Shown: in pieces, positions 8,361-44,030 of the stretch
Position numbering within the stretch: the first letter of the stretch is position 1
Layout of the letters: every line of letters starts with the position of its first letter
Assembly (NCBI GenBank): GCA_018001225.1
Contig: JAGNIJ010000017.1
Coordinates: forward strand, 10,688 to 74,687
DNA from: Kiritimatiellia bacterium
GTDB taxonomy: Bacteria; Verrucomicrobiota; Kiritimatiellia; CAIQIC01; JAGNIJ01
DNA: 64,000 bases
Reading direction: 5' to 3'
The notes under the pieces: model-generated
What the model was told of the DNA's origin: nothing
Database searches by the model: none
Seen by the model: the letters and a program-made list of their open reading frames with translations, nothing else
Made by a program: the position numbers and the translations under genes

Positions 8361-8772
8361 AAAAATCCTGCAGCAGGGCGCGGCACTCCTCCTCGAGCAC
8401 CCCGCCTTCGTACTCCACGCGGTGATTCAGCCGGGGGTTCTGGAATATCTGGAAGAGCGAGACCGCGCCGCCCCGGGCGGGGTCGGCCACGCCCCACACG
8501 ACCCGCGGGATGCGCGCCAGGACGATCGCCCCCGCGCACATGGGGCAGGGCTCCTTGGTCACGTAGAGGACCGTGCCGGCGAGCCGCCAGTCCTGCAGCG
8601 CGGCGGCCGCCTGCGTGATCGCGAGGATCTCCGCGTGGGCGGTCGGATCCTTGAGCAACTCGACCTGGTTGTGCGCCTGGGCGATCAACTGCCCGTCGCG
8701 CGCGATCACGGCGCCCACGGGCACCTCCTCGAGGTCGGCGGCCCGGCGCGCCTGCCGAAGCGCCGCGCGCAT
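8260..8772 (-). CDS. tadA: tRNA-specific adenosine deaminase
   Basis: HAEILAI and PCPMCAGAI carry the CDA zinc-binding motifs (H-A-E and PC-x2-C). Start ATG at 8770-8772. A low-complexity C-terminal tail overlaps the 3' end of the convergent membrane-protein gene by about 100 nt. Confidence 0.85.
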   Translation of the reverse strand: MRAALRQARRAADLEEVPVGAVIARDGQLIAQAHNQVELLKDPTAHAEILAITQAAAALQDWRLAGTVLYVTKEPCPMCAGAIVLARIPRVVWGVADPARGGAVSLFQIFQNPRLNHRVEYEGGVLEEECRALLQDFFRKHREAARAAGPPAEGAGAAGADSTPRRPTTP

Positions 8773-8884
8773 GAAGCGCTCGTGCGGCGGCGAGGCCGGT
8801 ATCTCGGGTTGTGTTTCGTTCACCGCGCGAATCTGGCTCAACGGCCTTTTACGCTCAAGCCCGAAAGCGGTATTCTTTTCTGCG

Positions 8885-10621
8885 ATGACGCCAGTCCCAA
8901 AGCGGCGCGGTCGGGCGGGGTGCCTTGCGGGGTGGTGTTTCCTGCTGGCCGCCGCGGCGCACGCGGACGATCTTGCGCTGCCGGTGGGGATGCCGATTCC
9001 TCCGCCGGGGCCCGGCGCGGGGCCGTACGCCGCGCCGCCGCTCGCCGAGTTCCAGGCGATGGAACAGGAGGTGCTGGCCGAGGGTCTGCAGGGCCCCGAC
9101 GGGCTGGCCGTGCACCCGTTGACCGGAGAGATTTTCTTTTCCGAGGAGGACGCGGCCCGCGTGCTCGTGCTGCGCGACGGGCAGCCGCTCCGCGTCGTGG
9201 ATCGGGACACGCCGCTCTACCGGCTCCGCGACGGGCGCCGCACGGCCGATCCGACGGAGCCGCTGCGCAACCCCGAGGGCATCGCCTTCTCGCCGTCCGG
9301 CGACCTGTACGTGGCGGAGGATATTTCCGGCGGGCGGCTGCTCCGCTTCCCGGGCCGTCCGGACGGCCGGTACCCGGAGGGCGAGGTGATCGAATTTCCG
9401 GGCGAGTGGCGCGCCTTCGCGTGGGAGGGCGTGGCCGTCGGCCCGCAGAACGACATCCTGCTGGCGGGCTCCGACGTCGAGTTCGCCATGGCCGGCAGCG
9501 GCGCCAAGCCGTTCATGGGCGCCATCCTCTACCGCGACAACGTCGGCCAATGGTGGGTGCCGTACCGCCGGCCGTTCGCGAGTTTCTCCTCCGTGCAGTT
9601 CACGCGGGGCGGGCGGCAGGCCGTCTACACGTGCGAAGTGTCGGGCGAGGTAGGCTGGCTGGACCTGCAGGGGCGCCGGCCCATCGGCGGCTGTAGTGCC
9701 ACGGCGGTCAAGGCCCCGGAAGGCATCGCCGTGCTGCCGGACGGCCGGCTGGCGGTGGCCTCGGAGGCGGGCGCCCTGCTGATCGTGGACCCCGCGGTGG
9801 ACCGCCACACGGTGGCGGCGGAGGGGTTCGGGTCGCTCGAATCGGCGCAGTGGGATCCGCTCGCGGAGCGCCTGCTGCTCACGGAGCAATCGAAGGGCCG
9901 CGTGCTGTCGCTCAAGGCCCGGCCCGACTTCCCGGCGGAGGTGAACCGCATGGACATGGCGGTCTACCATCCGCTGTTCAACCCGCGCCATGTCCCCGAG
10001 TACTGCCCCCCGTACCTGGCCCGCATCCTGGCCCTGGGCGGGCTCGACTACGGCCGGCCGGGCCTGCCGCCGATCTCCTTCCGCGAGTTCACCGAGCGCG
10101 TGCCGCTGATCGCGGCGGACGCGCGCGCGGTGCCCGCGGAAGACCAGGAACCGGTCGAGGATCCGTTGGAGCGCGTGCAGTTCGTCGTCTTCAAGCCGAA
10201 CCAGATGGTCATGGGCGAGACCGGCCCGCAGACGGCGCTGGCGCTGTTCGCCAGCCGTTCGAAATCGGGACGCGTGACGGCCACGAGCGTCCTGCGGGCG
10301 GAGACGATGGGGATCAGCCTGGACCGGCCGAAGACCGAGCGGATCGGCACGGCGGCCCTGGCCGTGCCGATGCCCGGGGGGGTCGGGGTGTCCTCGCTGG
10401 GCATCGCCAACATCAACTTCATGGGGCTGGGCCGGACGCCGGACTACTCGGTGGTGCTCAACCCGGGGCAGCCGTTCGACAGCTATCTCGTCGTATACGA
10501 AACCGGCGGAAGGCGTGTACATTATAGGTTGGAGTTCTCGGAGGAAGGGTCGGGGCTGGATTCGTGGGTCGTGGCGTTCACCGCCTCGCGGCCTGACGAA
10601 TGGCTGTTCCTCGGCCGATAA
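8885..10621 (+). CDS. Secreted beta-propeller (NHL/SMP-30/gluconolactonase-like repeats) protein, paralog 1 of 3
   Basis: Signal peptide MTPVPKRRGRAGCLAGWCFLLAAAAHADD. Repeated GPDGLAVHP...IFFSEE / NPEGIAFSPSGDLYVAE blade motifs. The C-terminal domain shares the motifs RVQFVVFKPNQMVMGETGPQ, FASRSKSGRV and NFMGLGRTPDY with the ORFs at 10622 and 16937. Confidence 0.7.
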   Translation: MTPVPKRRGRAGCLAGWCFLLAAAAHADDLALPVGMPIPPPGPGAGPYAAPPLAEFQAMEQEVLAEGLQGPDGLAVHPLTGEIFFSEEDAARVLVLRDGQPLRVVDRDTPLYRLRDGRRTADPTEPLRNPEGIAFSPSGDLYVAEDISGGRLLRFPGRPDGRYPEGEVIEFPGEWRAFAWEGVAVGPQNDILLAGSDVEFAMAGSGAKPFMGAILYRDNVGQWWVPYRRPFASFSSVQFTRGGRQAVYTCEVSGEVGWLDLQGRRPIGGCSATAVKAPEGIAVLPDGRLAVASEAGALLIVDPAVDRHTVAAEGFGSLESAQWDPLAERLLLTEQSKGRVLSLKARPDFPAEVNRMDMAVYHPLFNPRHVPEYCPPYLARILALGGLDYGRPGLPPISFREFTERVPLIAADARAVPAEDQEPVEDPLERVQFVVFKPNQMVMGETGPQTALALFASRSKSGRVTATSVLRAETMGISLDRPKTERIGTAALAVPMPGGVGVSSLGIANINFMGLGRTPDYSVVLNPGQPFDSYLVVYETGGRRVHYRLEFSEEGSGLDSWVVAFTASRPDEWLFLGR

Positions 10622-12568
10622 ATGACCATGCATGAGCCGAGTCCAAGTCGGAAGGCAGCCCGGCGCCGGTGGGGCGTGGGCCTGCTCTGGGCCGCGGCCG
10701 GGCTGGCGCTGCCGCCGGGACCCGCGCCCGCGCTGCGCCTGGAGACGTCCCGCGAGCTGCTCGCGGTCGAGGTCGTCGCCGGCGGGTTGAAGGAACCCGG
10801 CGGCATGGCGACGGATCCCCGGCACGGCGAAGTCTACGTGGCCGAGCGGGGCGCCCACCGCGTATCCCTGATCCGCGACAAGCAGGTCCTCCCCGTGCTG
10901 GAGGGGGCGTTCGCCCTCGCCGAGAAAAAGCGCGGCCCGCGAAAAGCCTCCACGCTGGACGCCCCGTCCGCCATCGCCTTCGACGCCGACGGCCGCCTGT
11001 ACGTGGTCGAAAGCCACGGCCCGGCGCGGCTGCTGAAGTTCGAGCCGCTCTACGAAGGCTTGCGCCTGGCCTCGGTGATCGAGACCCCGTGGGTGGAAAC
11101 GCCGCAGGTCTGCACGGGCGTCGCCGCGGACCGCCGCGGCCGGCTGTTCGTCACCACGCAGAACCGCGAGCGCCGCGTGGTCACGGTCTTCGGCGCCGTG
11201 CTGATGCGGGAGGCGGACGGCAACTGGAAGCTGGTGGACCACGGCCCGTTCTCGGATTTCTCCAACGCCGCGGTGGACCCGGAGGGGCGCACCCTGGTCG
11301 TGGGCGAGCGCCGGGGCGCGGACTTGAGCTGGTACGACGCGCGCCGCCAGGTCGAGATCCGCAGCCTGGAGAAAATGGAAGGGCTGCGCCACCTGGCCCT
11401 GCTGCCGGACGGCACCACGGTCGCCAGCCTGAACCGCGCCGACGGCACCTGGAGCCTGGCGGAGGTGGACGGCCTCTCGGGCATCGTCTGGGAGTGGGTC
11501 GGCGGACTCGGGGAGATCGGCGGCTTGTGCGCCCACCCGGACACCGGGGATCTCTACGTCACGCTGGCGGGCGAGGGCAAGGTCATGCGGGTGCACCGGC
11601 TGGAGCCGCGGAAGGAGACGCCGGCGCCGCAGAGCCGGATCGGCCGCATGATGCGGGTGTTCGAGCTGGAAAACGCGATCCCGCCGCCCGAGTGGCCGGA
11701 GTTCTTCCGCACGTTCATCGAACAGTTGGGGCTGGTCCGGCCCGTCAACGAGCACACGGCGCGCCGGCCCGGCGAGCCCCGGCCGGAGGGCATCCCGCTG
11801 ACGATCGCGGAGTTCGCCTCCAGCGTGCCCGTGGTCGCCGCCAAGGTCCGGGCGCGCCTCGTCGGCCCGGAGGATCAGGAGGCGGACCCCGTCGAGGAGT
11901 TGAGCTTCCTCCTGTTCCATCCCAACCGGAGCATGCTGACGCGGCAGACCATGGCGCCCAGCTTGAGCCTGTTCTGGGCGCGGCACCGGAGCGGCCGGGT
12001 CGTCCGCAGCCAGTTCATGCCGAACCGGGCGGGCCGCCCGTTGAGCGAAGACATCCCGTGGGACGAGATGCCCGAAATGCTGGTCGCGTTCCCCGCCGGC
12101 TTCTACGCGCCCGAGACCGGCGTGTCCGAGAACAGCCTGCTGCGCGTCTACTTCCTGGGCATGGGCATGGGGCCGGACTACTGGATCGACCTCGACCGCG
12201 AGGACATGGGCCGGAGCCGCATGGTGGTCGAGAAGCAGGGCGGCCGGCGCGTGGACTATATCCTCGAGCCCTACCTCGAGACGCCCTCCGCCGGCGGGCA
12301 GACCGTCCTCGTCGCCGGCCTCAAGGAAGTGGAGATGGGCTGGCACGACCTGGGCCAGGACCCGATCCCGTGGAAGATTGTTCCCCCGGACGCGCGCCCC
12401 GTCCAGACCCGGCACCTGATGAACCTGGACCAGGTCCGCGCCCGGCCGATGCCCCGGGAACCCGCCGTGGCGGACGTGTACCTGCCCCAGCCGACCTTGC
12501 AGGGTACGGACCTCTCCCGGCGCATCGTCCTGCGCGCCGCCTCCCGCTGGGCCACGAACCCGTTTTAA
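10622..12568 (+). CDS. Secreted beta-propeller protein, paralog 2 of 3
   Basis: Its ATG is immediately after the TAA of paralog 1. Signal peptide GVGLLWAAAGLALPP. Blade motifs LKEPGGMATDPRHGEVYVAERGAHRVSLI. C-terminal motifs LSFLLFHPNRSMLTRQTMAPSLSLFWARHRSGRV and YFLGMGMGPDYW. Confidence 0.7.
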   Translation: MTMHEPSPSRKAARRRWGVGLLWAAAGLALPPGPAPALRLETSRELLAVEVVAGGLKEPGGMATDPRHGEVYVAERGAHRVSLIRDKQVLPVLEGAFALAEKKRGPRKASTLDAPSAIAFDADGRLYVVESHGPARLLKFEPLYEGLRLASVIETPWVETPQVCTGVAADRRGRLFVTTQNRERRVVTVFGAVLMREADGNWKLVDHGPFSDFSNAAVDPEGRTLVVGERRGADLSWYDARRQVEIRSLEKMEGLRHLALLPDGTTVASLNRADGTWSLAEVDGLSGIVWEWVGGLGEIGGLCAHPDTGDLYVTLAGEGKVMRVHRLEPRKETPAPQSRIGRMMRVFELENAIPPPEWPEFFRTFIEQLGLVRPVNEHTARRPGEPRPEGIPLTIAEFASSVPVVAAKVRARLVGPEDQEADPVEELSFLLFHPNRSMLTRQTMAPSLSLFWARHRSGRVVRSQFMPNRAGRPLSEDIPWDEMPEMLVAFPAGFYAPETGVSENSLLRVYFLGMGMGPDYWIDLDREDMGRSRMVVEKQGGRRVDYILEPYLETPSAGGQTVLVAGLKEVEMGWHDLGQDPIPWKIVPPDARPVQTRHLMNLDQVRARPMPREPAVADVYLPQPTLQGTDLSRRIVLRAASRWATNPF

Positions 12569-15417: not shown

Positions 15418-16926
15418 ATGGCGGAAGAAACGGAAGTCGGCGTAACCGAGTTGACCGAGCCCGAACTCCAGGTGGCCAAGGGCGGGCGCCCCGGAACCGA
15501 CGCCAACGTGGTGATCCAGGTGCTGGTGGGGCTCATCGGCACCGTCGCGGTGGCGTTTGCCGTGTTCCCCCTGAAGGGCCGGAGCGCGGCGCTGGATTAC
15601 ATCTACCAGCTCATCAACCAGCGCGGCCCCATTCAGTACATCGAGCTGTTCATGGGCTTCATGGTGGCGGCCCAGATCTTCCTGAAGTCGCGCATCCTGA
15701 AAAAGCAGACGCGCACCTTCATTGAAAGCCCCGTGGACTCCAGCATCGACCTCAACGACGACGTGCACGTGCAGGAGCTCCGCAAGCGCATCGTCGCCAA
15801 CCCGCTCTTCACCGAGAGCATCGCGTTGAGCCGCATGGACCGCATCCTGGCCCTGTGGCTGGCGACCAAGGACGTTGGCCGTATCTCCGGCTGGGCGGCC
15901 TCGGAGTCCGACCGCGACACGTCGTCCTCCGACTCCTCCTACGCCCTCTCGCGCGTGCTGATCTGGGCCATTCCCATCCTGGGGTTCATCGGGACGGTGC
16001 AGGGCCTCGGGTCCGCCGTGTCCGGGTTCGCGGACTTTCTGAAGAGCAGCGCCGAATTGAGCGCCATCAAGGGCGCCATCGCGAACGTGACCATCGGCCT
16101 CGGCGTCGCCTTCGACACCACCTTCCTCGCCCTGATCCTGGTGACCCTGCTGATGTTCCCGCTCTCCTCGCTGCAGCGCCGCGAGGAAAACCTCTTCGTC
16201 GAAATCGACATCTACCTGGACGAGGTGCTCATCTCGCGCCTGCCCTCGCCCGAGAGCAAGCCGATCGTGATCGAGAACCTCGAGGACTCCATCGAGGCCG
16301 CCTTCCGCCGGTACATCCCCGACCCGGACCGCTACGACGAGGTGTTCACCCGGTCCATCGAGAAGGCCGCCGCCAGCGTGGAGCAGAAGTTCGACGGCTT
16401 GAGCCAGAACTACGTCTCCACGCTGCGGGGCTTGAGCGAGCACTTGTCCAGCAGCTTCGGCACCGTGGGCGACGCGATGGAGACCGCCCTGCGCAAGGTC
16501 ACCGCGGACCTGCGCGCCCAGGAGGACGCCGTCCTCGAAAGCCGCCGGAAGCTGGCGGAGGAGGAGGCGGGCCGGATGAAGGGCGTGTTCGCCGGCGTCA
16601 ACGACGCCGTGGTCAAGGCGGCGGGCGAGTACACGCGCAGCGCGGACGCGCTCACGAGCGCCACGCGCGAGAGCTCCGAGCAATCCGTCCAGGCCGCGCG
16701 GGAGCTGGTCACGCGCATGAGCGAGGTCCGGCAGCTGGCCTCGGGCATCCAGGACCTTTTCAAGATCCAGCAGGCCATGGAGAAGAGCCTCGCGGGGATC
16801 GCCGCCTCGGCGGAGTTCCGCACGGCGCTCGAGGATCTGCGCAAGCACCTGACCACGACCGACGCGCTGGTCAGCCGCTTGAGCCGTCCGCGCGTGATCA
16901 CGCTGCGCGAGGAGACCGGCGCGTGA
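15418..16926 (+). CDS. MotA/TolQ/ExbB-family proton-channel (stator) protein with a roughly 260-aa C-terminal coiled-coil extension
   Basis: GAGGTG RBS 6 nt upstream. TM1 VVIQVLVGLIGTVAVAFAVF, a large cytoplasmic loop, then the family signature PILGFIGTVQGLGSAVSGF and IANVTIGLGVAFDTTFLALILVTLLMFPL. Residues about 245-502 are predicted helical and Glu/Ala/Arg-rich with no TM. Confidence 0.75.
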   Translation: MAEETEVGVTELTEPELQVAKGGRPGTDANVVIQVLVGLIGTVAVAFAVFPLKGRSAALDYIYQLINQRGPIQYIELFMGFMVAAQIFLKSRILKKQTRTFIESPVDSSIDLNDDVHVQELRKRIVANPLFTESIALSRMDRILALWLATKDVGRISGWAASESDRDTSSSDSSYALSRVLIWAIPILGFIGTVQGLGSAVSGFADFLKSSAELSAIKGAIANVTIGLGVAFDTTFLALILVTLLMFPLSSLQRREENLFVEIDIYLDEVLISRLPSPESKPIVIENLEDSIEAAFRRYIPDPDRYDEVFTRSIEKAAASVEQKFDGLSQNYVSTLRGLSEHLSSSFGTVGDAMETALRKVTADLRAQEDAVLESRRKLAEEEAGRMKGVFAGVNDAVVKAAGEYTRSADALTSATRESSEQSVQAARELVTRMSEVRQLASGIQDLFKIQQAMEKSLAGIAASAEFRTALEDLRKHLTTTDALVSRLSRPRVITLREETGA

Positions 16927-16936: not shown

Positions 16937-18964
16937 ATGTCGCTAGGCCTTACAGCGCGCGGGCGGCGGATCGCGGCGGCCCTGGCTGCGGCGGGCTGCC
17001 TCTGGCCGCGGGTCGGCGAAGCGCAGGTGGTGGACACCGCCAAGAGCGACTTCAACATGCAGGTCAGGGCCCGCGGCCTCAAGAACCCGGAGGGCGTGGC
17101 CCTGCATCCCTCGAGCCGCGACATCTACGTGGCCGAGCGGGGCGCCAACCGCGTCGTCGTCCTGCGCAACAACACCCCGGCCCCGGCCATCGAGTCCGGC
17201 TGGACGGTGGAGACCAATTATCCCAAGTGGGTCATCAGCAAGAACCGCCCGCGGGAGGCGGTCGAGCGGGGGCAGTTGCAAAGCCCCGGGGCCCTCTCGT
17301 TTTCCACCAACGGCCACCTGTTCGTGGTCGAACAGGTGCCGTGGGGCCGGGTCCTCGAGTTCATTCCCGACGACGCGGGCCAATACAAGAAGGCCCAGGT
17401 CGTCGGCGTGCCGTGGCTGGAGAAGCCGTACGTGTGGGAGGATCTCAAGGCCGCGGACGACGGGCGCCTGTTCGTGGCGGGAAACGACAGCGCGGCGCGC
17501 GGCGGGCTGACCTTCGGCGTGGTGCTGGTCCGGGATCTCGAGGGCGACTGGTGGGTGGTGGATTACGGGCCGTTCATGAATTTCAGCGGCGTGAGCCTCT
17601 CCCGGAAGCAGGACGTGGTCGTCATCGGCGAGCGGCCCGAGGGCGGCATCGTGTGGTGGGACGCCGTCCGGCACCTGCCCATCGGCACCGCGGGCAACCT
17701 GACCCCGCAGTCCGAGATCGAGGCCGTGGGACTGCTCGGCAACGGGGCCATCGTGCTCGCGCAGCGCGCCAGCACGAAGGGCAAGGACGCCCGGCTGCTC
17801 TCCCTCGACCCGACCAGCGGCGCCCTGAAGCAGCTGGTCGAAGGGCTCGATTCCCTCGGCGCGATCTGCCTCGTGCCGGAGACCGGGAACCTGCTCGTGA
17901 CCGATCCCCAGGCCGGCCTCCTGGCCGAGTGCTCGCCTAAGACGCCCCTCCCGCCGGGCGAGTACCTGATCCAGCGCAGCCTCGAGGGCTACGAAATGGC
18001 GACGGGCTTCACGCCCCGGTCGTCGCCGCAGTTCCTCCGCAGCTTCTTCAGCCAGGCCGGCGTCGGCCTGGACCAGCAGACCACCAAGGGTTCGGCCGGC
18101 GGGGAGGACGAGGGCGAGGCCGGCGGCGGCATGGCCGTCTCGGTGTCCCTGCGCGACTTCGCGAGCAAGCTCCCGCTGGTCGCCGGCAAGGTGAAGGTGA
18201 TGCAGGCCGAGAACCTGGAGGGCGAGGACAAGGACCCGGTCACGGAGGTCAACTTCGTGCTGCTCTTCCCCGGCCGCATGGTGCTCGGCGGGGAATACGC
18301 GACGCCCAGCATGAGCTACTTCGCCGCCACGCGCAAGAGCGGCAAGGTCGAGCAGACCCGCGAACTGCTCTCGGGCATGGCGATGGACCAGCGGGTGCAG
18401 GGCGAGGGCTGGACGCGCCTCGGGAAGGGCGGGGCCATCAGCGTGCCGCTGGTCACGTGCAGCATGCAGAAGCGCGACGACGGCATGGAACTGAACCTCG
18501 TGTTCCTCGGCATGGGCCTCTACGACGATTACTACCTTTCGATGATGAGCGGCGTGGACGAGGAGGTCGGCACCCTGGTGGTGAACGGGATCAAGGGCGA
18601 CCGGCGGGTCTACAAGACCTCCTTCCGCGAGGTCGTCAACGACGGGTCGGAGGTCAAGAACCTGGTTGTCGCGGGGTTCGATCCGAAGGAGAAGATCGGC
18701 GTGGGGTGGCTGAACATCGGCCGGTGGCCGGTGGGGTCCTATGTCGGCCTGGGCGAGATGCAGTCCGGGGCGTTCCAGGGGGTCAGCGAGGACTTGGCGC
18801 GGCTGATAGAGCGCAAGCAGATGGAGTGGCGCGCGACGGAAGTCGGCGCCGCGACGGAAGGCGGCGAGGTTCCGGCCGGCGAACCCGGGGCGGAGCCGGT
18901 CCCCGCGCCGGTCGGGGGCGGGGAAGCCGGTGCGCCGGTCCCGGCGCCCGCGGCGACGCCGTGA
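16937..18964 (+). CDS. Secreted beta-propeller protein, paralog 3 of 3, embedded in the stator operon
   Basis: Starts 10 nt after the stator gene stop. Signal peptide RRIAAALAAAGCLWP. Blade motifs LKNPEGVALHPSSRDIYVAERGANRVVVL. C-terminal motifs EVNFVLLFPGRMVLGGEYATPSMSYFAATRKSGKV and VFLGMGLYDDYY match paralogs 1 and 2. Confidence 0.7.
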   Translation: MSLGLTARGRRIAAALAAAGCLWPRVGEAQVVDTAKSDFNMQVRARGLKNPEGVALHPSSRDIYVAERGANRVVVLRNNTPAPAIESGWTVETNYPKWVISKNRPREAVERGQLQSPGALSFSTNGHLFVVEQVPWGRVLEFIPDDAGQYKKAQVVGVPWLEKPYVWEDLKAADDGRLFVAGNDSAARGGLTFGVVLVRDLEGDWWVVDYGPFMNFSGVSLSRKQDVVVIGERPEGGIVWWDAVRHLPIGTAGNLTPQSEIEAVGLLGNGAIVLAQRASTKGKDARLLSLDPTSGALKQLVEGLDSLGAICLVPETGNLLVTDPQAGLLAECSPKTPLPPGEYLIQRSLEGYEMATGFTPRSSPQFLRSFFSQAGVGLDQQTTKGSAGGEDEGEAGGGMAVSVSLRDFASKLPLVAGKVKVMQAENLEGEDKDPVTEVNFVLLFPGRMVLGGEYATPSMSYFAATRKSGKVEQTRELLSGMAMDQRVQGEGWTRLGKGGAISVPLVTCSMQKRDDGMELNLVFLGMGLYDDYYLSMMSGVDEEVGTLVVNGIKGDRRVYKTSFREVVNDGSEVKNLVVAGFDPKEKIGVGWLNIGRWPVGSYVGLGEMQSGAFQGVSEDLARLIERKQMEWRATEVGAATEGGEVPAGEPGAEPVPAPVGGGEAGAPVPAPAATP

Positions 18965-18994: not shown

Positions 18995-19681
18995 ATGGGT
19001 AGGAGATCCAGAGGCGCGGCCATGGACTTCTCGTCGTTCATGTGCGTGATTCTCATGCTCATCGGCGTGCTCATGATCCTGCTCATCAGCAACGTGCTCA
19101 CGATCATCAGCAACCCCGAAAACGTGCAGATCAGCGCCGTGATCAAGGGCGCGCTCTACGCCGAGAAAACCGAGGCGGATGAGGACCAGGGCCTGATGCT
19201 GGTGCCGAAGTTCGGCAACAAGTTCAAGGACCCCGTGTACGTGGACGTCTACGGCGACCAGATCGTCATCTATCCCGAGGGGAAGATCGTCCCGGTCGTC
19301 GACCTGGAGCGCTCCGGGAACGCCTTCGAACGCATGCTGAACACCGTGGCCGCGAAAAAGGACGAGCGCTACATCGTGCTGCTCGCCCGGCCCCGTTCGG
19401 CGCGCGTCCTGCGCCGGCTGCGCACCGCCATCCACGACCGCGAGGTCGACCTGGGATTCGAGCTGTACGAGGAGGGCCGCACCGTCGAGGTGGCGGCCGG
19501 CCAGGCGGCGTCGGGCGAGGCGGAAGGGGAAACCCCGCCGGAAGGCGAACCGGGCGGGGAACCCGTCGCACCCTCCGCGGAAGGCGCGGAACCGGGCGCG
19601 GCGCCGGAGGAGGGCGGAACGCCGCCGGCCGAACCGCCGGCCGAACCGGCGGCCGCCGCGCCCGTGGCACCCCAGGAGTAA
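18995..19681 (+). CDS. ExbD/TolR-family protein with a Pro/Glu/Ala-rich C-terminal extension
   Basis: AGGGAG RBS at 18981-18986. N-terminal TM FMCVILMLIGVLMILLI. The ExbD-like periplasmic fold pattern is DPVYVDVYGDQIVIYPEGKIVPVVDLE...YIVLLARPRSARVLRRL...DREVDLGFELYEE. A 55-aa tail ETPPEGEPGGEPVAPSAEGAEPGAAPEEGGTPPAEPPAEPAAAAPVAP follows. Confidence 0.65.
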   Translation: MGRRSRGAAMDFSSFMCVILMLIGVLMILLISNVLTIISNPENVQISAVIKGALYAEKTEADEDQGLMLVPKFGNKFKDPVYVDVYGDQIVIYPEGKIVPVVDLERSGNAFERMLNTVAAKKDERYIVLLARPRSARVLRRLRTAIHDREVDLGFELYEEGRTVEVAAGQAASGEAEGETPPEGEPGGEPVAPSAEGAEPGAAPEEGGTPPAEPPAEPAAAAPVAPQE

Positions 19682-19687: not shown

Positions 19688-20320
19688 ATGGCGAAAAAAG
19701 AACGAGGCAACTCCGTCAACCTGGACTCGTTCCTGGATATCATGACGTGCATGCTGGGCATCATCATCCTGATGATTCTCCTGACCGGCATCGACGCCTC
19801 GCAGATCAAGGTCCTCGTCCCCACGCCCATGGAGCAGCCCACGGACAAGCGGCCGATCTTCATCGAGTGCCGGAACAACGAGCTCTTTCTCGTGCCGATC
19901 GAGGACATCACGCGCATGGTCTACGACGAGATGGGCGCGCTGGCCGAGAAGGCGAAGGGCGACCAGTCGGCGTTCGCCCAGTTGCTCGAGACGGCGACGG
20001 TCAAGACCGAGGCGCACCAGGTGGACCTGGCCTTCGCCCTGATGAGCCAGTTCGCGCTCACGTCGCTGCCCGGGGTCAGCGGGTACAGGCTGGAATCCGT
20101 CTCCCGCGAGACCGCGCAGGACTGGTTCGGCAAGATCCTGAACGAGGTGCACAAGGACGAGGAGATGATCACCTTCCTCGTGCGCGACGACAGCTACGTC
20201 GTCTTCAAGAAGGCCCGCGCCCTCGCCTGGCTGGCCAATGTCCAGGTCTCGTGCGAACTGCTCGACGTCAACGAGCCCATCAAGTTCGGCCTCGGCGGCA
20301 CCCGCTCCATGGCGCAGTAG
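19688..20320 (+). CDS. Second ExbD/TolR-family protein
   Basis: CAGGAGT RBS. ExbD-type N-terminus VNLDSFLDIMTCMLGIIILMILL (cytoplasmic stretch then TM). A diverged periplasmic domain ITFLVRDDSYVVFKKARALAWLANVQVSCELL follows. Confidence 0.6.
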   Translation: MAKKERGNSVNLDSFLDIMTCMLGIIILMILLTGIDASQIKVLVPTPMEQPTDKRPIFIECRNNELFLVPIEDITRMVYDEMGALAEKAKGDQSAFAQLLETATVKTEAHQVDLAFALMSQFALTSLPGVSGYRLESVSRETAQDWFGKILNEVHKDEEMITFLVRDDSYVVFKKARALAWLANVQVSCELLDVNEPIKFGLGGTRSMAQ

Positions 20321-20333
20321 GGGTGGGCAAGGC

Positions 20334-20645
20334 ATGTCAGACCAGGGTTGGAATGAACTGGTGAGCCGGATCGTGGGAGCGGTACACCCCTTGCAGATCA
20401 TTCTTTTCGGATCCTCCGCTCGGGAAGGCGGGGGCGTCAGGGGCGACGTGGATGTACTCGTGGTCATGCCCGATGGTACGCCACGGCGCGCGACAGCGCA
20501 GAAACTCCACCTGGAAATGTTCGGACTGCCCTTCGCCGTGGATATCCTCGTCGCGACACCGTCCGATCTGCAGAGGCATCGTACGAATATCGGGTTGATC
20601 TACAAAACCATCCTGGAAGAGGGGAAACAACTCTATGCCGCCTGA
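20334..20645 (+). CDS. Minimal nucleotidyltransferase (MNT/MntA-type antitoxin)
   Basis: The GSSAREGGGVRGDVDVLVV motif (G-S-x9-13-D-x-D) of the Pol-beta superfamily. 103 aa. Its stop overlaps the downstream HEPN start. Confidence 0.75.
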   Translation: MSDQGWNELVSRIVGAVHPLQIILFGSSAREGGGVRGDVDVLVVMPDGTPRRATAQKLHLEMFGLPFAVDILVATPSDLQRHRTNIGLIYKTILEEGKQLYAA

Positions 20646-20820
20646 TGTCCCCGTTCCGGGTTCCGCGGCAGACTGGCTTCGGCATGCGAAAGCGGACCTG
20701 GCCTTGGCCCGCGTTCCGCTTCCGGAGGAAGGGCTGTATCTTTCCCTGTGTTTTCATGCTCATCAAGCGGCTAAAAAGGCGATCAAGGCCGTACTGAATT
20801 TCTTCCCGAACACTGCCTGA
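20635..20820 (+). pseudogene. HEPN-domain toxin gene (COG2250-type), 3'-truncated
   Basis: Its ATG overlaps the MNT stop by 11 nt. The N-terminal helix-1/2 pattern is AADWLRHAKADLALARV...LSLCFHAHQAAKKAIKAVL. The ORF stops after 61 aa and the downstream R-x4-6-H catalytic motif is absent. A palindromic element begins about 38 nt later. Confidence 0.55.
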
Positions 20821-20857
20821 AACTTCAATGCCGGCTTGGTGATTATGAGGGGTGAGT

Positions 20858-20930
20858 GTCATCCCGAACGAAGTGAGGGATCTCCGACTTGTTGGGCAGC
20901 GCAGAGATCCCTCGCTGCGCTCGGGATGAC
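20858..20930. repeat. Imperfect palindromic MITE/REP-like element
   Basis: GTCATCCCGAACGAAGTGAGGGATCTC, 19 nt, GAGATCCCTCGCTGCGCTCGGGATGAC: 27-nt inverted arms at about 85% identity. Both-strand translations give the CHPERSEGS-type peptides that often appear as spurious hypothetical ORFs. Confidence 0.5.
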
Positions 20931-21071
20931 ATGCTCCACTTTCTATGTCCGGCAAGCACCGCACGGGCCTTGCGCAGTCATCAAAGTTTCATCCGTGAGC
21001 GTTCCGGCCGCCGCCGGAGGCTTTGCTGATCTGAGACACCATCCGTGAAAAGTGCGTGTCACATATTTGTT

Positions 21072-21169: not shown

Positions 21170-21212
21170 GTCTCATTGCTGTTTCCATCCGGCCCCTGGG
21201 GCCGGCGGCCCA

Positions 21213-21247: not shown

Positions 21248-21582
21248 ACCCCCAATCCTTCTCCTGCCTCCACTGCGGCGCCTGTTGCCGCTGGCCGGGG
21301 CACGTGCTGCTGACGGACGCGGATGTGGCGCAACTGGCGTCCCATCTGGGCATTCCCGAGCGGGATTTCATCGACCGGCACACCGTGCTGGCCTCCAACC
21401 GGGGCCAGTTGAGCCTGGCCGAGACGCCGGAGGGCGCCTGCGTGTTCCTGGAAAACGACGCCTGCCGGGTGTACGTTTCCCGCCCGGCGCAGTGCCGGGA
21501 ATTCCCGGCCGGCTGGTCCGTTCCGGGGTGCCCGGCGGTCGGGGGCCGGGCCGCCGGAGCCCTGGCGCGGCGCCCGGTGTAA
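21232..21582 (+). pseudogene. YkgJ-family (CxxCxxCC zinc/iron-chelating domain) gene lacking an in-frame canonical start in its present repeat configuration
   Basis: The in-frame peptide TLNTEHPQSFSCLHCGACCRWPGHVLLTDADVAQLASHLGIPERDF...CREF carries the CxxCxxCC hallmark upstream of the first possible start (GTG 21304). The frame opens immediately after a TGA inside the heptamer tract. Confidence 0.45.
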
Positions 21583-21732: not shown

Positions 21733-22500
21733 ATGGGCTTCGTAAGACACAGCAATCTCAAGGTGTGTTTTCTTGCGGTCCTGGCCGGGCTGCTGGTCGG
21801 AGGGCCCTCCATCGCGGCCGACGATCCCGCCGCGTTGCGGGCCGAACTCGATGCCGTGCGCCGCGAACTGGCCGGGCTGCAGGCCTCCGATCCCCTGGGC
21901 GGCTCCGGCCGCTGGTCGCAGCGGGACCGCGCGGAATACGACGTCCCCGAGGTTGCCGAGCTCCGGGGGCAGGCCAAGGCCCTCGAAAAAAGCCTCGTGG
22001 AAAAACGCGCCGCCCTGCGCGACCGCTTCGCCCTGCTGTTCCCCGAACTCCGCGACCTGTTCCGCGCCCGCGACGCGGCCTACGCGAAGCTCGCGGAGGG
22101 CGGCCGGATGGCCGCCCTGGTGGACAACGAGATTCGCCTGGCCGAGCGCGCGGACCCGCCCGACGCCGCGAAGTTGGAAGGCCTGCGCGCCGATCGCGAG
22201 CGCATGCGGTCGGAACTGGAGACCGCCCGGATAGCGGCGGAAAAGTCCCAGGCGGAATTCCTCGCGCTCCAGAAGGAGCGGGCGGCCGGCGACCCCGAAT
22301 GCGCCGCGCTGCAGGCGGAGATCGCGGACCTCGAGACCCGTTTCGCGCAGGCCCGGCAGCGGATGAACGAGAAGCTGGACGAACTCCCCGCGTCGCAGGC
22401 CGCCGAGGCGGAGCGGAGGGCGCAGTCGGCGCGGGTGGTGGAACTCAAGCAGCGCGAGCAGGCGCTGGTTGGGCAGTTGTCGCTTTTGGAAACGCAGTAA
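21733..22500 (+). CDS. Secreted coiled-coil protein (hypothetical)
   Basis: Signal peptide LKVCFLAVLAGLLVGGPSIAADD. The rest is heptad-like Ala/Glu/Arg/Leu-rich sequence. It ends 52 nt before the giant surface-protein gene. Confidence 0.5.
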   Translation: MGFVRHSNLKVCFLAVLAGLLVGGPSIAADDPAALRAELDAVRRELAGLQASDPLGGSGRWSQRDRAEYDVPEVAELRGQAKALEKSLVEKRAALRDRFALLFPELRDLFRARDAAYAKLAEGGRMAALVDNEIRLAERADPPDAAKLEGLRADRERMRSELETARIAAEKSQAEFLALQKERAAGDPECAALQAEIADLETRFAQARQRMNEKLDELPASQAAEAERRAQSARVVELKQREQALVGQLSLLETQ

Positions 22501-22551: not shown

Positions 22552-25500
22552 ATGACCGTTATGAAAAAACAAGAAGCTCGTCGTTCCCGGGATCGCTGGT
22601 TGACGTGGCGCCTGGTGCCGGTCGTGCTGTTCTGCGCCGCCGGCCTGGTGACGGCCCTCGAATCCCCCGGCCCGCGCCCGGAACAGGTCTTCTCCATCCT
22701 GCAGCTCCGGGTCGAGGACGGCCGGGTGTGGTTGTCCGCCGAAAATACCCCGCTGCGCGACATCCTCCGGGAACTTGGCGCGCAGAGCGGCGTCCGCCTC
22801 CAGGTCGACCCGGCGCTTGACGCGCCCGTCACCCTCGCGCTCGAAGGCGTCAGTCTCGAGGACGCGCTGAAGGCGCTCTCCGCCAGCCGCGCGCTCGTGT
22901 ACGAGAAGGACGGGGACGGCTACCGCCTCGCGGCCGCGACCGTGACGGCGCAGGAAGAGGCGGCCCCCGCGGCGCCGGCCGCGGAGGCGGAGAAACCCGC
23001 GCGGGCCGCGCTGCCCCGGGGCATGCTGACCAACGCCGGCCGGTCGCCGGATGAACTCATGCGGCGCGGTGCCGCGGCGATCCTGCTCCAGAACGCCCTG
23101 ATCGACACCGAGGCGGCCGCGGCCGGCCGCGGGCTCGAGGTGCCGGAGGCGTTCCGCGCCCCGGCGGACACGGAATACCACATCGTGCAGTTCGACGGGC
23201 CCGCTTCCGACGCGCAGCGCGAGGCCCTCGAAGAAGCCGGCGCGCTGGTCAGCCACTACGTCCCGCGCTCGGCCTTCGCGGTCCACGCGGACGCGGCGGC
23301 GATGGCCGCGGTGAAGGCCCTGCCCGGCGTGACGCACGTCGAGCCGTACCATCCCTATTTCAAGATGAGCGGCGAGGTGCTGGATTATCTCGTTCACGGC
23401 GAGGAGCAGGCCCTGGCGAACCCGAAGTTCCACGAGGGCGAGTTCAACGTCGTGCTCTTCCGGGGCGTGGAGGACGCGAAGGCGATCGAGGCCGCCGGCC
23501 TGGAGATCGTGCGCGAGCAGTCGGCGGGCGGGCGCGAGGTCCTGACCGTGCGCGGCGACGCGGACAAGCTGACCGACCTGGTGCAGCTCGACGCCGTGCA
23601 GTGGGTCGAGGCCTCCCCGGTGCGCAAGCCGATGAACGACCTGGGCACCGAGCGGATCCGCGCCAAGTCCCTCAAGGCCCTGCACCCGACGCTGACGGGC
23701 GCGGGCGTGATCGTCGGGATCACGGACTCCGGCATCGACTTCATCAACCCCGGCTTCGCCGTGGACCCCACGCAGGCCACGAGCACGAACCTGAACACCC
23801 GCATCGTGTACTACGACCAGCGGCCGAGCGTCACGTCGGACGGCTTCCCGGGCGACAACAACGGCCACGGCACGCACGTCGCGGGCAGCATCCTGGGCAA
23901 CGGGGCGCTCTCCGAGACCGTGCTGAAGGCGGCGGGCTCCGGGACGGGCGAGGGACCTTACAGCACGAATTACTTCGCCGGCGCCGCGCCCGGCGCGCGC
24001 GTGGTGATGATCGAGGACTTCAACAGCTTCACGGACGAGGAGCAGGCCGAGATTTCCTACAACAAGGGCGCCCGGCTCTCGAACAACAGTTGGGGCAACT
24101 CAGTCAACTACTATGGATCAATGTCTATGCTGTGGGACGAACTGGTCCGGGACGCCGTGCCCGGCACGGCGGGCAACCAGGAGTACATCGTCTTTTTCGC
24201 GGCGGGCAACGACGGCGGGGGCAATAACGATGGAACGGGCGGCGAGGCGGAGACCATCGGCCAACCCGGCAACGCCAAGAACGTCATCACCGTCGGCGCC
24301 GTGGAGCAGAAGCGCCTAGCTAACAACCTGCTTAACTACGAGTCCGACAAGGAAACGGATACGGATTGGCAGGTTGCTGGTTTTAGTTCTCGGGGACCGG
24401 TTCTTTATGCAGAAGGATTCGATCGTCGTATCAAGCCTGACATCATGGCGCCCGGTGCCTACGTGCTATCCGTGCAGTCTCGCGAAACGATGCCGGACTT
24501 CATTGAACTAGAAGGCACGGTCCACCGCGACTACCGCTATGGCAACATTGACTCGGGAACGAACTTCGCGTTCTTCAGCGGCACCTCGATGGCTACGCCT
24601 CTGACCGCGGGCGGTGGTGCGCTGATGTTTGAGTACTACACGAATACCTTCGGCAAGGCCCCGAGCCCCGCGATGATGAAGGCCATGATGGTCGGCGGAG
24701 CGCGGATGCTGAATTCGATCGTTTACAAGAACGCGTACGACGTCGGCCTTGTCGAACTCGTGGACCAGGGGTGGGGCCTGCTCGACGTCGTGCGTTCGGT
24801 GAACGGGCCACGCATTCAACCCACAGACGAGATCATCCTGCTGGATCAGGACCAGACGACGCCGCTGTCGGCCGGCCAGTTCTTCACCCGCCAGGTCAAG
24901 ATCAACGCGGGCGAGGGCGGCCTGAAGGTGGCCCTGGCGTGGACCGACCCGGCGGGTACGCCGGGCCTTGGCGTACAACTGGTTAACGACTTGGATCTCT
25001 ATGTCCAGGCCCCGGGCGGCGGCGGCTACATCGCAGGCAATTTCGAACTGGACGGCGCCCATTCGCGGCGGTTTGAGGCCATCGATCCGGAAATGGGTGA
25101 CGAGTACAACAATGTCGAAACGATTGTGATCCCCACGCCGACGCCGGGCACCTATACCATTCAGGTTTATGGGTATGCCGTGCCGCAAGGTCCGCAGGAC
25201 TTTGCGCTGTCCATCATGAAGGGTATCGGCATGGAAAGCCGTAATCCCGGCGACAGTCCCGACGTGGCCATGAGCGGGGATGATCGCCCCGTGATTGCCT
25301 ATTCCACGACGGCGAATGGATTGCGCCAGGTGTATACGAAGCGGTGGATCGGAGAGGTGGGAGATATTTCGGATATTGGCAAGTGGAAGCACATGGATGG
25401 CCAATGGTTCGAGGTAGGGTCTTCGGCCAGCGGCGGCGGCGTCAGCAAGACGTTGGCGGCTTCCGAGCAGCCTTCCGTCGCGGCTTCGGGAACCAACATC

Positions 25501-28500
25501 TTTGTCGCCTGGGCGGAACAGGCCTTGGCACCTTTCAACAAGAGTCGTATTTACTTCCGCCAGTACAATGGCAGTTCGTGGATTGAACTGGGCAGTTCCG
25601 CCAACGACTTCGGAGTGAGCGGGGAGAGCGAATTTGACGCCACGAAGCCGGTCGTGGCGGTGATGTCTGACGGGCGGCCGGTGGTGGCGTGGAAGCGGAC
25701 GCATTCGGTCAGCACGGGCCAGCGCGTGTTCGTCGCGAAGTGGAGCGGGACGAACTGGATCGGCCTGGCGTATTCGCACACCAACGGCATCGCCTACGAC
25801 GGCAACTACCGGCTGGTGGACGACCTGGACATGGTCGTCGACAGTTCCGGGATGCCGGTGGTCTCGTGGGCGGACACGACGCTGCAGCGGATCGTCACGC
25901 GGCGGTGGAACGGCTCGTCGTGGTCGACGCTGCCGAACCAGGGCAACACCTTCGTGCAGTACCCGAAGCTGGCCGCCGGGACCGGCGGCTCGATCTACCT
26001 GACCTGGGTCGAGACCTACGGGTCGGACCCGCTGCCGTACCTCTCGCAGCAGGTGTACGCGTCCCGCTACTCGGGCGGGAGCTGGAGCGCGATCAGCGGC
26101 TCGACGACCTTCCCCGGCATCAGCGCGGCGACCAGCGGCATCCCGCGGCGGCCGTCCATCGCGGTCTCGCCCGCGGGCACGGTGTTCGTCACGTGGGCGG
26201 GCGGGACGAACCTGCTGAATTCGGTCTATGTCAAGCGGGCGCAGGGCGGGGGCTGGGTCGGCGTCGCGGGCGCCGGCGAGCCGCCGGGCGTGGCGCTGGT
26301 CGGCGGCGTGTCCTTCACGCCGGTGTCGGTCACCGACAGCAAGGGCGTGCCGATCGTCGTGTACGAGAACACGGGCAGCGGCGAGAGCGAAGTGCTGGGC
26401 TTCAAGCTCGTCGCGGACACCGCGCCGCCGATCTTCGGCGGCCTGCTGACCGCCGAGGGGGGGACCAACAACAACGTGGCCCTCGGCTGGAACGCCGGGG
26501 CGGACAATTTCTCCACCAACATCTACTACCACATCTACCGCGGCACGAACGCGTGGGACTGCTGGGAAACGCCCATGTGCCCGGCGGGCGAGGTGTTCGG
26601 CAACCTGATCGCCGTGGTCACCAATACCACCGCGTTCACCGTGACGAATCTCACCAACTACAAGACCTACTGCTTCGGCGTCCGCGCCATGGACGACAGC
26701 GGGTTCATGGACAGCAACACCGTCACCCGGTCCGCCGGCCCGACGCAGCCCGGCGTGGACTGCCTGGACCTCGACTCCGACAGCGACGGCATGCCGGACC
26801 ACTGGGAGATCCTGCACGGGTTCGACCCGTTCAACCCGGCGGACGCGGCCCTCGACGCGGACGGCGACGGCCTGACCAACCTCGAGGAGTACGTCCTCGG
26901 CACGCACCCGCGGCACGTGGACAGCGACGGGGACGGCCTGACGGACGGCGCCGAGGTGCTGACGCACCAGACCGACCCGACGAAGGCGGACAGCGACGGG
27001 GACGGCCTGGACGACGGGTTCGAACTCGCGATCGGCACTGATCCGCGCAGCGCGGACTCCAACGCCAACGGCGTGAGCGACGGCGACATCTTCCAACTCG
27101 GGTACGACACGCCGGCCGACGCGTGGACCAACCTGAACATCTACCTCGCGGAGACGTTCGAGACCTCCTCGCGCACGAACTGGGCGCACAGCGCGCCGAA
27201 CGCCTACCTGCCGCTCGACCTCTGGCACCTGTCCACGGCCGAGCCCGGCACGAACGCGGGCATCCGGTCGATGGACGACCACACGCCGTCGAACTCGTAC
27301 CGCCTGGCGTACGACCCGTCCGCGACGAACCCGGCGGCGACCTACAGCCGGGGCCAGCCGCTGATCTGCGCCCTGGACAGCCCGCGCGTGGACGCCCTGG
27401 GGACGGGCAACCTGTACGTGGCGTGGCGGGAGTTCTACGACACCGAGCCGATCAAGGACTTCATCACCGTCCAGGCGCGCGGCGGCGGCAACACGAACTG
27501 GACCGTGGTGGCCGGGGCGCGTTCCGGCGAGAGCGGCGGGTGGTTCCGCCGCGTGGCGAATCTCGGGGCCTTCGCGGGCCAGAGCAACGTCCAGGTCCGC
27601 TTCCTGTTCACGGCCCAGAACGCGATCAACAACGACTTCAACGGCTGGTACGTGGACGACGTGATGATCTACCAGGGCGCGACGATCTTCGGCTGGGTGC
27701 GCGACATCAACGGCCGGCCGATCGTCGGCGCGACCGTCCGCGCGCTGGGGCGCGGCGGCGTGACGAACGTCGTGCAGGGCCACCCGACCATCCCGGCGCC
27801 GAAGATCTTCGGCGAGGCGGCGACGGCGGAGGACGGCAGCTACATGATCGCCGGGATCCCGCTGGGCCGCTACTACCTCAAGGCGGATGAGCCCAGCCAC
27901 CGGGCCGAGTTCTGGAACGGCGCCCTGTTCACCGCGCCGTACAGCTTCGGCAGCGGGTTGAATCCGGGCGTGTACAACCTCGACCAGGTCGGCGCGGGCG
28001 GGTACATCGACGTGCGCACGAACGGCGCGGTCCAGGAGGCCCACTTCGAGCTCGAGCGCGGGGAAAACCAGAGCTTCCTGGGCGTTTCGCACACGGCCTC
28101 GGCCGCCGGGCTGCCGGTGATCGTGGACTACACGGCCGCGACGCTGTGGAACGGCTCCACCTCGGCCCCGGCCCTGGTGGCCTACAGCACGACGAACGTC
28201 TTCCCGCGGCCGAAGCTCTATCCCGACTGGCTGACCAACGCCGTGAAGGCCGAGCTGTTCGCCGCGGCGTCGCCGGGCGAGCACCGCGTCGGCATGGGCG
28301 CGGGCCTGTGGCGGATGGCGCAGCCCGCCGTCGAGACGCGCGAGGGCGAGGTGGTCCAGGTGGACCTGCGGACCAACGCCGCGCAGGGCTATCTCTACGT
28401 GGCCTCGCTGGACGGCATGAGCTATCCCGTCTGGCTGAACGGCCTCAACACCGGCAGCAACACGCCGGCGCGCCTGTATGTCCAGGCCGGGACGCACCTG

Positions 28501-43945: not shown

Positions 43946-44030
43946 TTTTTTTAGCGCGGGCAGCGCCCGGCATTTGGAAACAGTACCATTGAAAAGCGAT
44001 AATCGGAAACGACGCAAGGAGGAGTACTCC

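Follow-up and report, generated by a model that had tools for sequence, protein, structure and literature searches.

The 64,000-nucleotide stretch of DNA analyzed here (the window) comes from the genome of a Kiritimatiellia bacterium (assembly GCA_018001225.1, contig JAGNIJ010000017.1, forward-strand positions 10,688 to 74,687) and carries a four-gene operon, A-NHL-X-Y, in which the gaps between successive genes are 10, 30 and 6 nucleotides (nt). Gene A encodes a protein of the MotA/ExbB/TolQ superfamily, NHL a protein with an NHL-type beta-propeller, and X and Y two small proteins predicted to cross the membrane once. Our main finding is that the A protein joins a membrane core of predicted motor type to a cytoplasmic tail far longer than those of TolQ, ExbB or MotA, and that this tail is built on an eleven-residue repeat lying between two nearly invariant segments. 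An original prediction, made from the letters of the window, had drawn attention to this gene: its observation of a long-tailed MotA/ExbB-like protein is confirmed, and its interpretation is supported in part. It further suggested that the tail could couple the stator to an intracellular effector or signalling partner. Coordinates are collected in Table 1.

The A subunit and its cytoplasmic tail

The open reading frame (ORF) of A begins with an ATG 6 nt after a GAGGTG, has no internal stop, and shows a GC content at third codon positions (GC3) of 0.95, as real genes do in this window, whose overall GC content is about 69%. Among 5.8 billion proteins searched, at least 611 clusters of homologues were found, mostly from Kiritimatiellia. 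The best 120 of these clusters are 52 to 93% identical to the window protein, are 466 to 509 amino acids (aa) long and cover 93 to 100% of the query, one 309-aa fragment excepted; the closest homologue among the matches listed (93% identity) comes from a Kiritimatiellia metagenome-assembled genome. A fusion artefact, raised in the original prediction itself, is refuted by these data. Indeed, had an assembly error or frameshift fused two genes, one for a short channel and one for a coiled coil, the full-length architecture would not be expected to recur, as it does, in over 600 clusters of independent origin (NCBI, JGI, ENA and Logan assemblies) and in about 46 species-level genomes; moreover, GC3 is uniformly high, and the junction region is the best conserved part of the protein.

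Family assignment rests on fold, conserved residues and relatives, because the Pfam model MotA_ExbB (PF01618) scores the window protein at 18.1 bits, below its gathering cut-off of 22.9. With the same model, E values of 1e-3 or lower were obtained for 59 of the 64 wider relatives, 5.9e-13 being the best, and relatives from Gimesia and Akkermansia score above threshold. In an AlphaFold2 monomer model, computed from an alignment of 38 homologues, the core (aa 30-270) has a predicted local distance difference test (pLDDT) score of 80-90, and its modelled fold is clearly ExbB/TolQ/MotA/ZorA-like: the first 22 Foldseek matches in the PDB are all A subunits of 5:2 motors (ExbB, TolQ, MotA, PomA and ZorA chains), the best being ExbB with a TM-score of 0.55-0.59 (normalized to the target), ahead of TolQ, MotA and ZorA, at E values of 7e-3 and weaker. 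By hhalign, the A family aligns with E. coli TolQ over membrane helices 3 and 4 (TM3 and TM4; probability 62-71%), placing T193 on TolQ T145 and T235 on TolQ T178. Both threonines are invariant in a wide alignment of 64 distant relatives, down to about 20% identity, and D233 is invariant inside the Kiritimatiellia family. Fold, threonine pair and relatives thus agree with the MotA/ExbB-family assignment first proposed from the letters. Compared by hhalign with single E. coli sequences, the families gave weak alignments to TolQ, ExbB and ExbD and no meaningful ones to ZorA1, ZorB1, TolR or MotA (0.7% for the A family against MotA).

The two core motifs quoted in the original prediction were found at aa 186-198 (PILGFIGTVQGLG) and aa 231-240 (AFDTTFLALI), and the last hydrophobic helix ends at about aa 250. 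We infer, rather than demonstrate, a MotA-like topology of four membrane helices, because the hydrophobic stretch of TM2 is short; the modelled TM2 helix continues into the cytoplasm to aa 102 and is followed by KSRILKKQTR.

The tail was measured as the number of residues after the last membrane helix, with one script for all proteins. It comprises 252 residues in the window protein, compared with 41 in E. coli TolQ, 49 in ExbB, 68 in MotA and 526 in ZorA1, so that the short canonical tails against which the original prediction had set this protein (41-68 residues in our count) were correctly given. Its helical nature was also borne out, AlphaFold2 placing one helix at aa 305-463 and another at 465-489 (monomer pLDDT 50-70). 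The composition is rich in the four residues named at the time (12% A, 11% E, 9% R and 10% L) as well as in serine (10%), and proline is absent from aa 320-470.

Alignment of the family shows that the tail is not uniform: a conserved neck is followed by a variable rod and by a conserved C-terminal motif. Across the 46 species-level loci listed, the 27-residue core of the neck, IENLEDSIEAAFRRYIPDPDRY(D/E)EVF, is almost invariant, single substitutions being rare; it is kept in lineages that are only 42-47% identical overall and is better conserved than the channel. AlphaFold2 models the neck as a loop, a helix (aa 288-299) and a second loop that leads into the long helix. The C-terminal motif, with its KPRVITLREE end, is kept down to 42% overall identity. 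Constraint is thus concentrated at the neck and the tip, both near-invariant, around a variable middle.

The repeat of this middle part is a hendecad and not the classical heptad. Between aa 305 and about 400, the alignment-averaged hydrophobic period is 3.65-3.7; written in rows of eleven, the sequence has hydrophobic residues at positions 1, 4 and 8 through about ten rows (about 110 residues), with an irregularity at about aa 369-380. A hairpin tail, in which the neck would meet the tip by folding back, was considered, and the length of this register and the lack of a conserved break make it less likely. The tail matches no known globular domain in Pfam or in a PDB profile search, a possibility that had been left standing by the original prediction; the matches in the PDB profile search were to helical bundles and apolipoproteins only, and were weak and compositional.

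Comparison with ZorA and a wider long-tailed clade

To compare the tail with that of the Zorya protein ZorA, E. coli ZorA1 (from NC_009801.1) was run through the same periodicity script. The best hydrophobic period is 3.63 in ZorA1 and 3.64 in the window; the proximal part is hendecad-like in both, and the distal part lies near 3.5 in ZorA1 and at 3.4-3.5 in the window. With the same proximal-to-distal switch in the two proteins, the proposed 'ZorA-like architecture' is supported at the level of coiled-coil type. Structural work on ZorA has resolved the proximal part of its tail as a right-handed pentameric coiled coil, and the remainder was modelled likewise by the same authors (PMC11946911); the core leucines of this coiled coil, at 250, 254, 258 and 261, have the 4-4-3 spacing of one hendecad (PMC11946911). 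The likeness to the E. coli type I ZorA-ZorB complex (PMC11946911; PDB 8QYD) extends to the general plan: a MotA/ExbB-fold core followed by a long, proline-poor cytoplasmic helix, conservation at the passage from the last membrane helix to the tail, and a B subunit with a membrane aspartate, which is Y in the window.

The same periodicity allows the tail to be read as something other than a rod: eleven-residue amphipathic repeats could bind along the membrane's inner face or another lipid surface, as in apolipoproteins, perilipins and alpha-synuclein, in which case A would be a scaffold or channel associated with the membrane and not a motor subunit bearing a shaft. The Pfam families Apolipoprotein and ApoLp-III are matched by 15 and 4 of the 64 relatives, respectively, and also appear in precomputed annotations, the PDB profile search retrieves apolipophorin III and ApoA-I (E 0.006-0.03), and 11-mer periodicity is typical of lipid-binding helices too. 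However, the weak, compositional character of these matches, the absence of proline punctuation over 150 residues, a hydrophobic stripe as narrow (3 of 11 positions) as the core of the ZorA tail, and a period pattern that matches the experimentally observed ZorA rod make this reading quite unlikely.

Likeness in the coiled coil does not extend to orthology. The NCBIfam model ZorA_1 scores the window protein at 15.8 bits against a cut-off of 190, through the tail only, so that A is not a member of that family; PADLOC ZorA models reach at most 31 bits. PADLOC ZorA3 is the best library match to the core (E 2e-8), and among the 64 relatives the ZorA models reach 2.4e-18, compared with about 6e-13 for the generic Pfam model, a result judged no better than that of the generic model. 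An hhalign comparison of A with the ZorA1 core gave no meaningful alignment, and that of Y with E. coli ZorB1 a probability of 3%. As judged from these sequence comparisons, the A protein is not a ZorA orthologue. The two also differ in plan: ZorA has three membrane helices and the window protein four predicted ones, with no specific sequence relationship, and the ZorA tail has 507 residues (about 70 nm), whereas the window tail has about 185-190 helical residues and a predicted length of about 25-28 nm, roughly one third. On the B side, the window has two paralogues that lack an OmpA-type peptidoglycan-binding domain, one of them without the aspartate.

That the locus is not a Zorya system, as had been concluded from the partners, was upheld: no ZorC, ZorD, ZorE, ZorF or ZorG gene was found adjacent to the operon, a PADLOC scan of the operon neighbours gave no match, and the partners have no OmpA domain. 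Could it nonetheless serve anti-phage defence, as a divergent relative of Zorya or a system of another kind, its tailed motor responding to envelope damage and calling in effectors whose genes lie outside the locus? ZorA is to date the only known case of a MotA/ExbB core with a long tail, PADLOC ZorA3 models are the best library match to the core, and a nucleotidyltransferase/HEPN pair lies just downstream of the operon. Against this, the ZorA scores are weak and generic, the pair is an insertion missing from related loci, no relative of A was found in 2.9 million viral contigs, and the operon is class-wide and syntenic in an envelope-biogenesis context, unlike Zorya, which occurs sporadically in defence islands. 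A defence role is very improbable, and we rejected it on the PADLOC and NCBIfam scores, the gene context and the lack of viral relatives.

Beyond the Kiritimatiellia family, a profile search of 1.84 billion representatives, clustered at 50% identity, revealed a wider clade of 3,723 clusters at E<=1e-3, 2,300 at <=1e-10 and 533 at <=1e-30. Among the best 150 matches, which include fragments, most full-length proteins match over about aa 20-275. In 64 sampled members the tails measure 213-771 residues, and windows classified as hendecad-like outnumber heptad-like ones (936 vs 466), so that long hendecad tails on MotA/ExbB cores are common outside Zorya. Genomes named in this clade include Gimesia, Rhodopirellula, Thermoguttaceae, Phycisphaeraceae, Akkermansia and Lentisphaerae, as well as the cyanobacterium Gloeothece verrucosa (P0153, WP_013322210.1), which extends the clade to at least one cyanobacterium outside the Planctomycetes-Verrucomicrobia-Chlamydiae (PVC) superphylum. 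Some members (among P0153, P0194, P0195 and P0261), with 980-1,033 aa, have tails of 700-770 residues, longer than that of E. coli ZorA. Partners differ in this wider clade, being coiled-coil single-pass proteins of 264 aa and of 300-460 aa. In Gimesia (L073, 7788..10056) and Akkermansia (L065, 7776..11072), for example, A subunits of 450-490 aa with 29-33% identity to the window protein are followed by coiled-coil single-pass proteins of 264, 301 and 459 aa that are not of the X/Y type; the Gimesia A subunit has an N-terminal zinc-ribbon-like match. A link to the Akkermansia mucin-utilisation locus was dismissed, as it had no literature support and the relatives are 29-33% identical with other partners. 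Our literature search retrieved no paper on this family in Kiritimatiellia or on non-defence ZorA-like tails.

Partners, gene neighbourhood and the proposed motor

The A homologues with the same tail were examined for their genomic partners, which in about 48 species-level loci follow the order A-X-Y or A-NHL-X-Y. X and Y are paralogues (hhalign 98.4%, E 7.6e-15), and about 45 loci encode both. The membrane aspartate of Y, D17, is invariant in 33 orthologues derived from the loci and reaches a conservation of 90% or more among 49 database homologues; hhalign with E. coli ExbD (probability 42%, E 2.6e-4) covers the membrane helix and first strand and places D17 on D25. Beyond the helix, Y has a periplasmic alpha/beta domain with an insertion of about 70 aa. 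In X, the position of the aspartate is occupied by C, A, N, S or P in 31 of 31 orthologues and never by D or E, although another aspartate, D11, is near-invariant at the cytoplasmic edge; a compact periplasmic alpha/beta domain follows, and then a P/E/A-rich tail (aa 170-228).

The original prediction had called these partners ExbD-type and without a peptidoglycan-binding domain. The second statement holds, as no OmpA/peptidoglycan-binding match was obtained with X, with Y or with their orthologues (31 and 49, respectively). The first is weakly supported for Y and not supported for X. The ExbD/TolR family (PF02472) matches Y below threshold and over the N-terminal, aspartate-bearing segment only (E 0.045 in Pfam, 8e-4 in NCBIfam); such matches were found in 17 of the 49 Y orthologues and in none of the 31 X sequences, never reaching the threshold, and MotB_plug gave sub-threshold matches in 9 of the 49 Y sequences (OmpA in none). 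The Pfam scan of X gave no match in any of its 31 members. PDB profile searches with the X and Y families found no ExbD/TolR chain and only weak MotB matches to Y (E 0.2-3), while the AlphaFold2 model of Y (pLDDT 85) retrieves TolR at rank 12 (E 0.43).

The NHL protein has a Pfam NHL propeller with PDB profile matches to PknD and 'Pizza' propellers (1e-18 to 1e-30); its C-terminal domain of about 300 residues matches nothing in Pfam or among PDB sequences. We mapped 79 loci, taking one genome per GTDB species: the NHL gene lies between A and X in 23 of about 50 Kiritimatiellia-type loci, the others being A-X-Y. This recurrence in about half of the Kiritimatiellia loci rules out a local insertion.

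In the window, the operon has as neighbours, besides the NHL gene, a surA-like gene, a 2-hydroxyacid dehydrogenase gene and a YkgJ-like gene, and much of this arrangement is conserved. The Kiritimatiellia loci share a divergent 2-hydroxyacid dehydrogenase gene and a SurA-like chaperone gene upstream, the loci of the NHL type having instead a YfhO-like membrane protein and an ABC-F ATPase. Downstream, a YkgJ-like CxxCxxCC gene is present in 22 loci and a tightly packed fabZ-lpxA-secretin-GspE-GspF block in 16-18. The neighbourhood is one of envelope biogenesis and not a defence island.

We propose, with a probability of about 45%, that A is the pentamer-forming subunit of a housekeeping, proton-driven motor of the 5:2 type that bears a ZorA-style rod and is a conserved chromosomal feature of Kiritimatiellia. 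In such a motor, five A chains would surround two B helices, with T193 and T235 ringing D17 of Y. The central axle would be formed by Y alone or by Y paired with the Asp-less X: an X/Y heterodimer with a single aspartate, and a Y dimer with X at the periphery, are equally possible. After TM4, each A chain would run through the acidic neck (aa 276-317) into the proline-free hendecad helix, and the five tail helices may pack into a right-handed coiled-coil rod of about 25-28 nm, presenting at its end five copies of the KPRVITLREE tip. Proton flow via D17 of Y would turn the A ring and the rod relative to the X/Y axle, as proposed for ZorAB, the axle being held in the periplasm, maybe with the help of the NHL-propeller protein, and the tip would engage a putative cytoplasmic partner. 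By its turning rod and tip contact, the motor would then connect a process in the cytoplasm with the proton motive force or with the condition of the envelope. The gene neighbourhood makes a role in envelope or outer-membrane homeostasis more likely than one in phage defence.

Several points weigh against this proposal. The 5:2 stoichiometry, the pentameric rod, the rotation, the choice of the part that is fixed and the function are drawn by analogy with known motors, and the single-Asp X/Y axle is likewise hypothetical. Sequence similarity to characterised members is marginal, and a PDB profile search with the A family found no motor chain (MotA, ExbB or ZorA) at E<=1. The periplasmic domains of X and Y do not, by sequence, appear assignable to ExbD/TolR, so that the anchoring of the axle is not explained; the monomer model has low predicted confidence in the tail; and no conserved gene for a cytoplasmic partner was found in the neighbourhood.

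This last negative result also favours the chief alternative, a real possibility if a somewhat unlikely one, in which the operon encodes a Tol/Ton-like energiser with a periplasmic output. X and Y, with the NHL propeller where present, would act on the outer membrane or peptidoglycan, and the tail would only assemble, anchor or localise the ring (for example at the division site), transmitting nothing to the cytoplasm. Both fold and hhalign place the core nearest to TolQ/ExbB, a beta-propeller gene inside the operon recalls tolB, and surA, fabZ-lpxA and secretin genes lie in the neighbourhood. When the tail of ZorA is deleted, the membrane motor no longer assembles (PMC11946911), so that a tail can be needed for assembly alone. 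In addition, the Kiritimatiellota isolate Tichowtungia is reported to have no recognisable TolA or TonB (PMC12204202). The operon itself, however, has no TonB-like transducer (SHLS helix, Pro-rich spacer and C-terminal domain) and no TolA-like one, the membrane helix of X having no histidine and no domain following its Pro-rich stretch. No Pal/OmpA domain was found, and the propeller is of the NHL type, has a different second domain and is missing from half of the operons. Assembly alone, moreover, would leave the conservation of the C-terminal tip at 42% overall identity unexplained.

The proposed rod-bearing motor can be compared with several characterised ones. Tol and Ton are the nearest in structure and sequence, and they share with the window the two channel threonines, small B subunits without an OmpA domain, an envelope-related context and a beta-propeller gene in the operon. 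They differ in their tails (41-49 residues against 252) and in having no counterpart of the predicted extra N-terminal membrane helix; the window operon, for its part, encodes no TolA/TonB-like protein, no Pal and no protein of the TolB type (PD40 plus N-domain), and its B subunits are two divergent paralogues that never reach the ExbD threshold of Pfam. MotAB and PomAB are set apart by the lack of an OmpA domain in Y orthologues, in which MotB_plug is matched below threshold only.

GldL-GldM and PorL-PorM are also 5:2-type motors, with a sizeable C-terminal cytoplasmic extension of the A subunit and a B subunit without a peptidoglycan-binding domain. GldL, however, crosses the membrane with two helices and lacks TM3-TM4 motifs of the MotA/ExbB type, and GldM is a long, periplasm-spanning dimer; the window locus, moreover, is not known to have type IX secretion system genes.

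The gliding motor AglR-AglQ-AglS of Myxococcus resembles the window operon in combining one TolQ-like A subunit with two different TolR-like single-pass proteins. The same plan of one A and two B subunits is found within the same superphylum, including the Kiritimatiellota isolate, in PVC clusters described in PMC12204202, which are ordered TPR, tolQ-like, two tolR-like, vWA and differ from the window operon. Both are non-flagellar, non-Ton motors, as the window operon would be. In the material drawn on here, neither AglRQS nor PVC-cluster A subunits are reported with a long tail; the TPR and vWA-transducer genes of the PVC clusters are absent from the window operon, and a loss of the aspartate in one paralogue is not described for them in the excerpted text of PMC12204202.

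To date, a cytoplasmic rod on an ion-driven 5:2 motor has been described only for Zorya, in which it is thought to carry an envelope signal to DNA-targeting effectors. If a rod of the same type is present in a class-wide, non-mobile operon, the tailed motor would be a general device for linking membrane and cytoplasm, not a defence speciality. The window operon would then offer a second, independent system in which to ask what the tail does, with the 27-residue neck, the C-terminal peptide and a two-paralogue axle with only one proton-binding member as handles, and it may give a clue to how the outer envelope of Kiritimatiellia is energised in the absence of TolA and TonB. A bolder proposal, which we regard as unlikely as a whole, is that tailed 5:2 motors form a large, mostly non-defence class of which Zorya is a specialised branch, and that in Kiritimatiellia, which appear to have neither Ton nor Tol transducers, the operon encodes a principal envelope motor that passes rotation or torque through a right-handed pentameric rod to a cytoplasmic target and uses a single-Asp axle.

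Table 1. Features of the A-NHL-X-Y operon (positions in the window; residues numbered within the A protein)
Feature	Residues	Position	Strand	Basis or description
A subunit, MotA/ExbB/TolQ superfamily, long cytoplasmic tail	502 aa	15418..16926	+	Intact ORF, GC3, homologues, predicted fold
TM1	31-52	15508..15573	+	Kyte-Doolittle 2.59; AlphaFold2 helix 31-48, pLDDT >85
Probable TM2	71-90	15628..15687	+	AlphaFold2 helix 71-102; short hydrophobic stretch IELFMGFMVAAQIFL
TM3 with GFIGTVQGLG	176-198	15943..16011	+	Hydrophobicity, alignment, hhalign (T193)
TM4 with AFDTT	222-250	16081..16167	+	Hydrophobicity, alignment, hhalign (T235)
Neck ...PIVIENLEDSIEAAFRRYIPDPDRYDEVFTRSIEKAA	276-317	16243..16368	+	Invariant columns in alignment A1; best conserved stretch of the protein
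Hendecad coiled-coil segment	303-412	16324..16653	+	Hydrophobic a, d and h positions over about 10 x 11 residues
Distal helical segment	413-489	16654..16884	+	Hydrophobic period 3.4-3.5 from about aa 420; AlphaFold2 helix
C-terminal motif HLxxTDxF(C)xxLS(K/R)PRVITLREE	477-499	16846..16914	+	Present in 49 of 49 family loci examined
NHL protein, predicted periplasmic	675 aa	16937..18964	+	Signal peptide; six-bladed NHL beta-propeller (aa ~40-340); ~300-aa C-terminal domain; P/A/G/E-rich end
X, single-pass B-like protein	228 aa	18995..19681	+	Cys17 at the Asp position; alignment A3
Y, single-pass B subunit	210 aa	19688..20320	+	Membrane D17 (nt 19736-19738); alignments A2 and A6

Other features of the window and of related loci

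Two further NHL paralogues lie upstream in the window, at 8573..10621 (+) and 10622..12568 (+). The three are secreted proteins of about 650 aa, 27-29% identical to one another, each with a six-bladed propeller and the conserved C-terminal domain of about 300 aa; two are upstream of surA and one is inside the motor operon. Low-complexity ends rich in Pro, Glu, Ala and Gly are present in X (aa 170-228, 19502..19678) and in the NHL protein of the operon (aa ~640-675, 18854..18961). They are lacking in most orthologues and, in X, were acquired independently in loci L020, L030, L036, L040 and L044.

In operons without the NHL gene, fabZ-lpxA-secretin(GspD)-GspE-GspF directly follow Y (L003, 12717..18775, and about 16-18 other loci); the stops and starts of lpxA/gspD and of gspE/gspF overlap, an unusual block of lipid A and secretion genes next to a putative motor. 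Scanned stretches of the window showed no flagellar gene, and a scan for promoters and terminators found sites no more frequent than chance.

Downstream of Y, at 20238..20820 (+), the window has an MNT-like nucleotidyltransferase ORF (probable start at about 20334) and an apparently truncated 61-aa HEPN ORF. Flanked by Y and the YkgJ-like gene, the two resemble an insertion of toxin-antitoxin type and are missing from the related loci examined. A dip in GC content to 0.62 covers 20001-22000. The small YkgJ-like gene (PF03692, CxxCxxCC; 21304..21582, +) may belong functionally to the cluster, given that its homologues stand beside the operon in 22 loci. Further on, a 255-aa coiled-coil protein with a signal-peptide-like N-terminus (21733..22500) precedes a gene for a giant, subtilase-containing protein of 3,918 aa (22552..34308, +), whose 3,937-aa counterpart in locus L001 has Pfam matches to S8 peptidase, TSP3, PEGA and Kelch-type domains. 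A type IV pilus-like assembly block (40234..47261, +) comprises a 566-aa PilM-family protein, two unassigned genes whose products have 318 and 353 aa, and a secretin that is unusually large at 1,124 aa.

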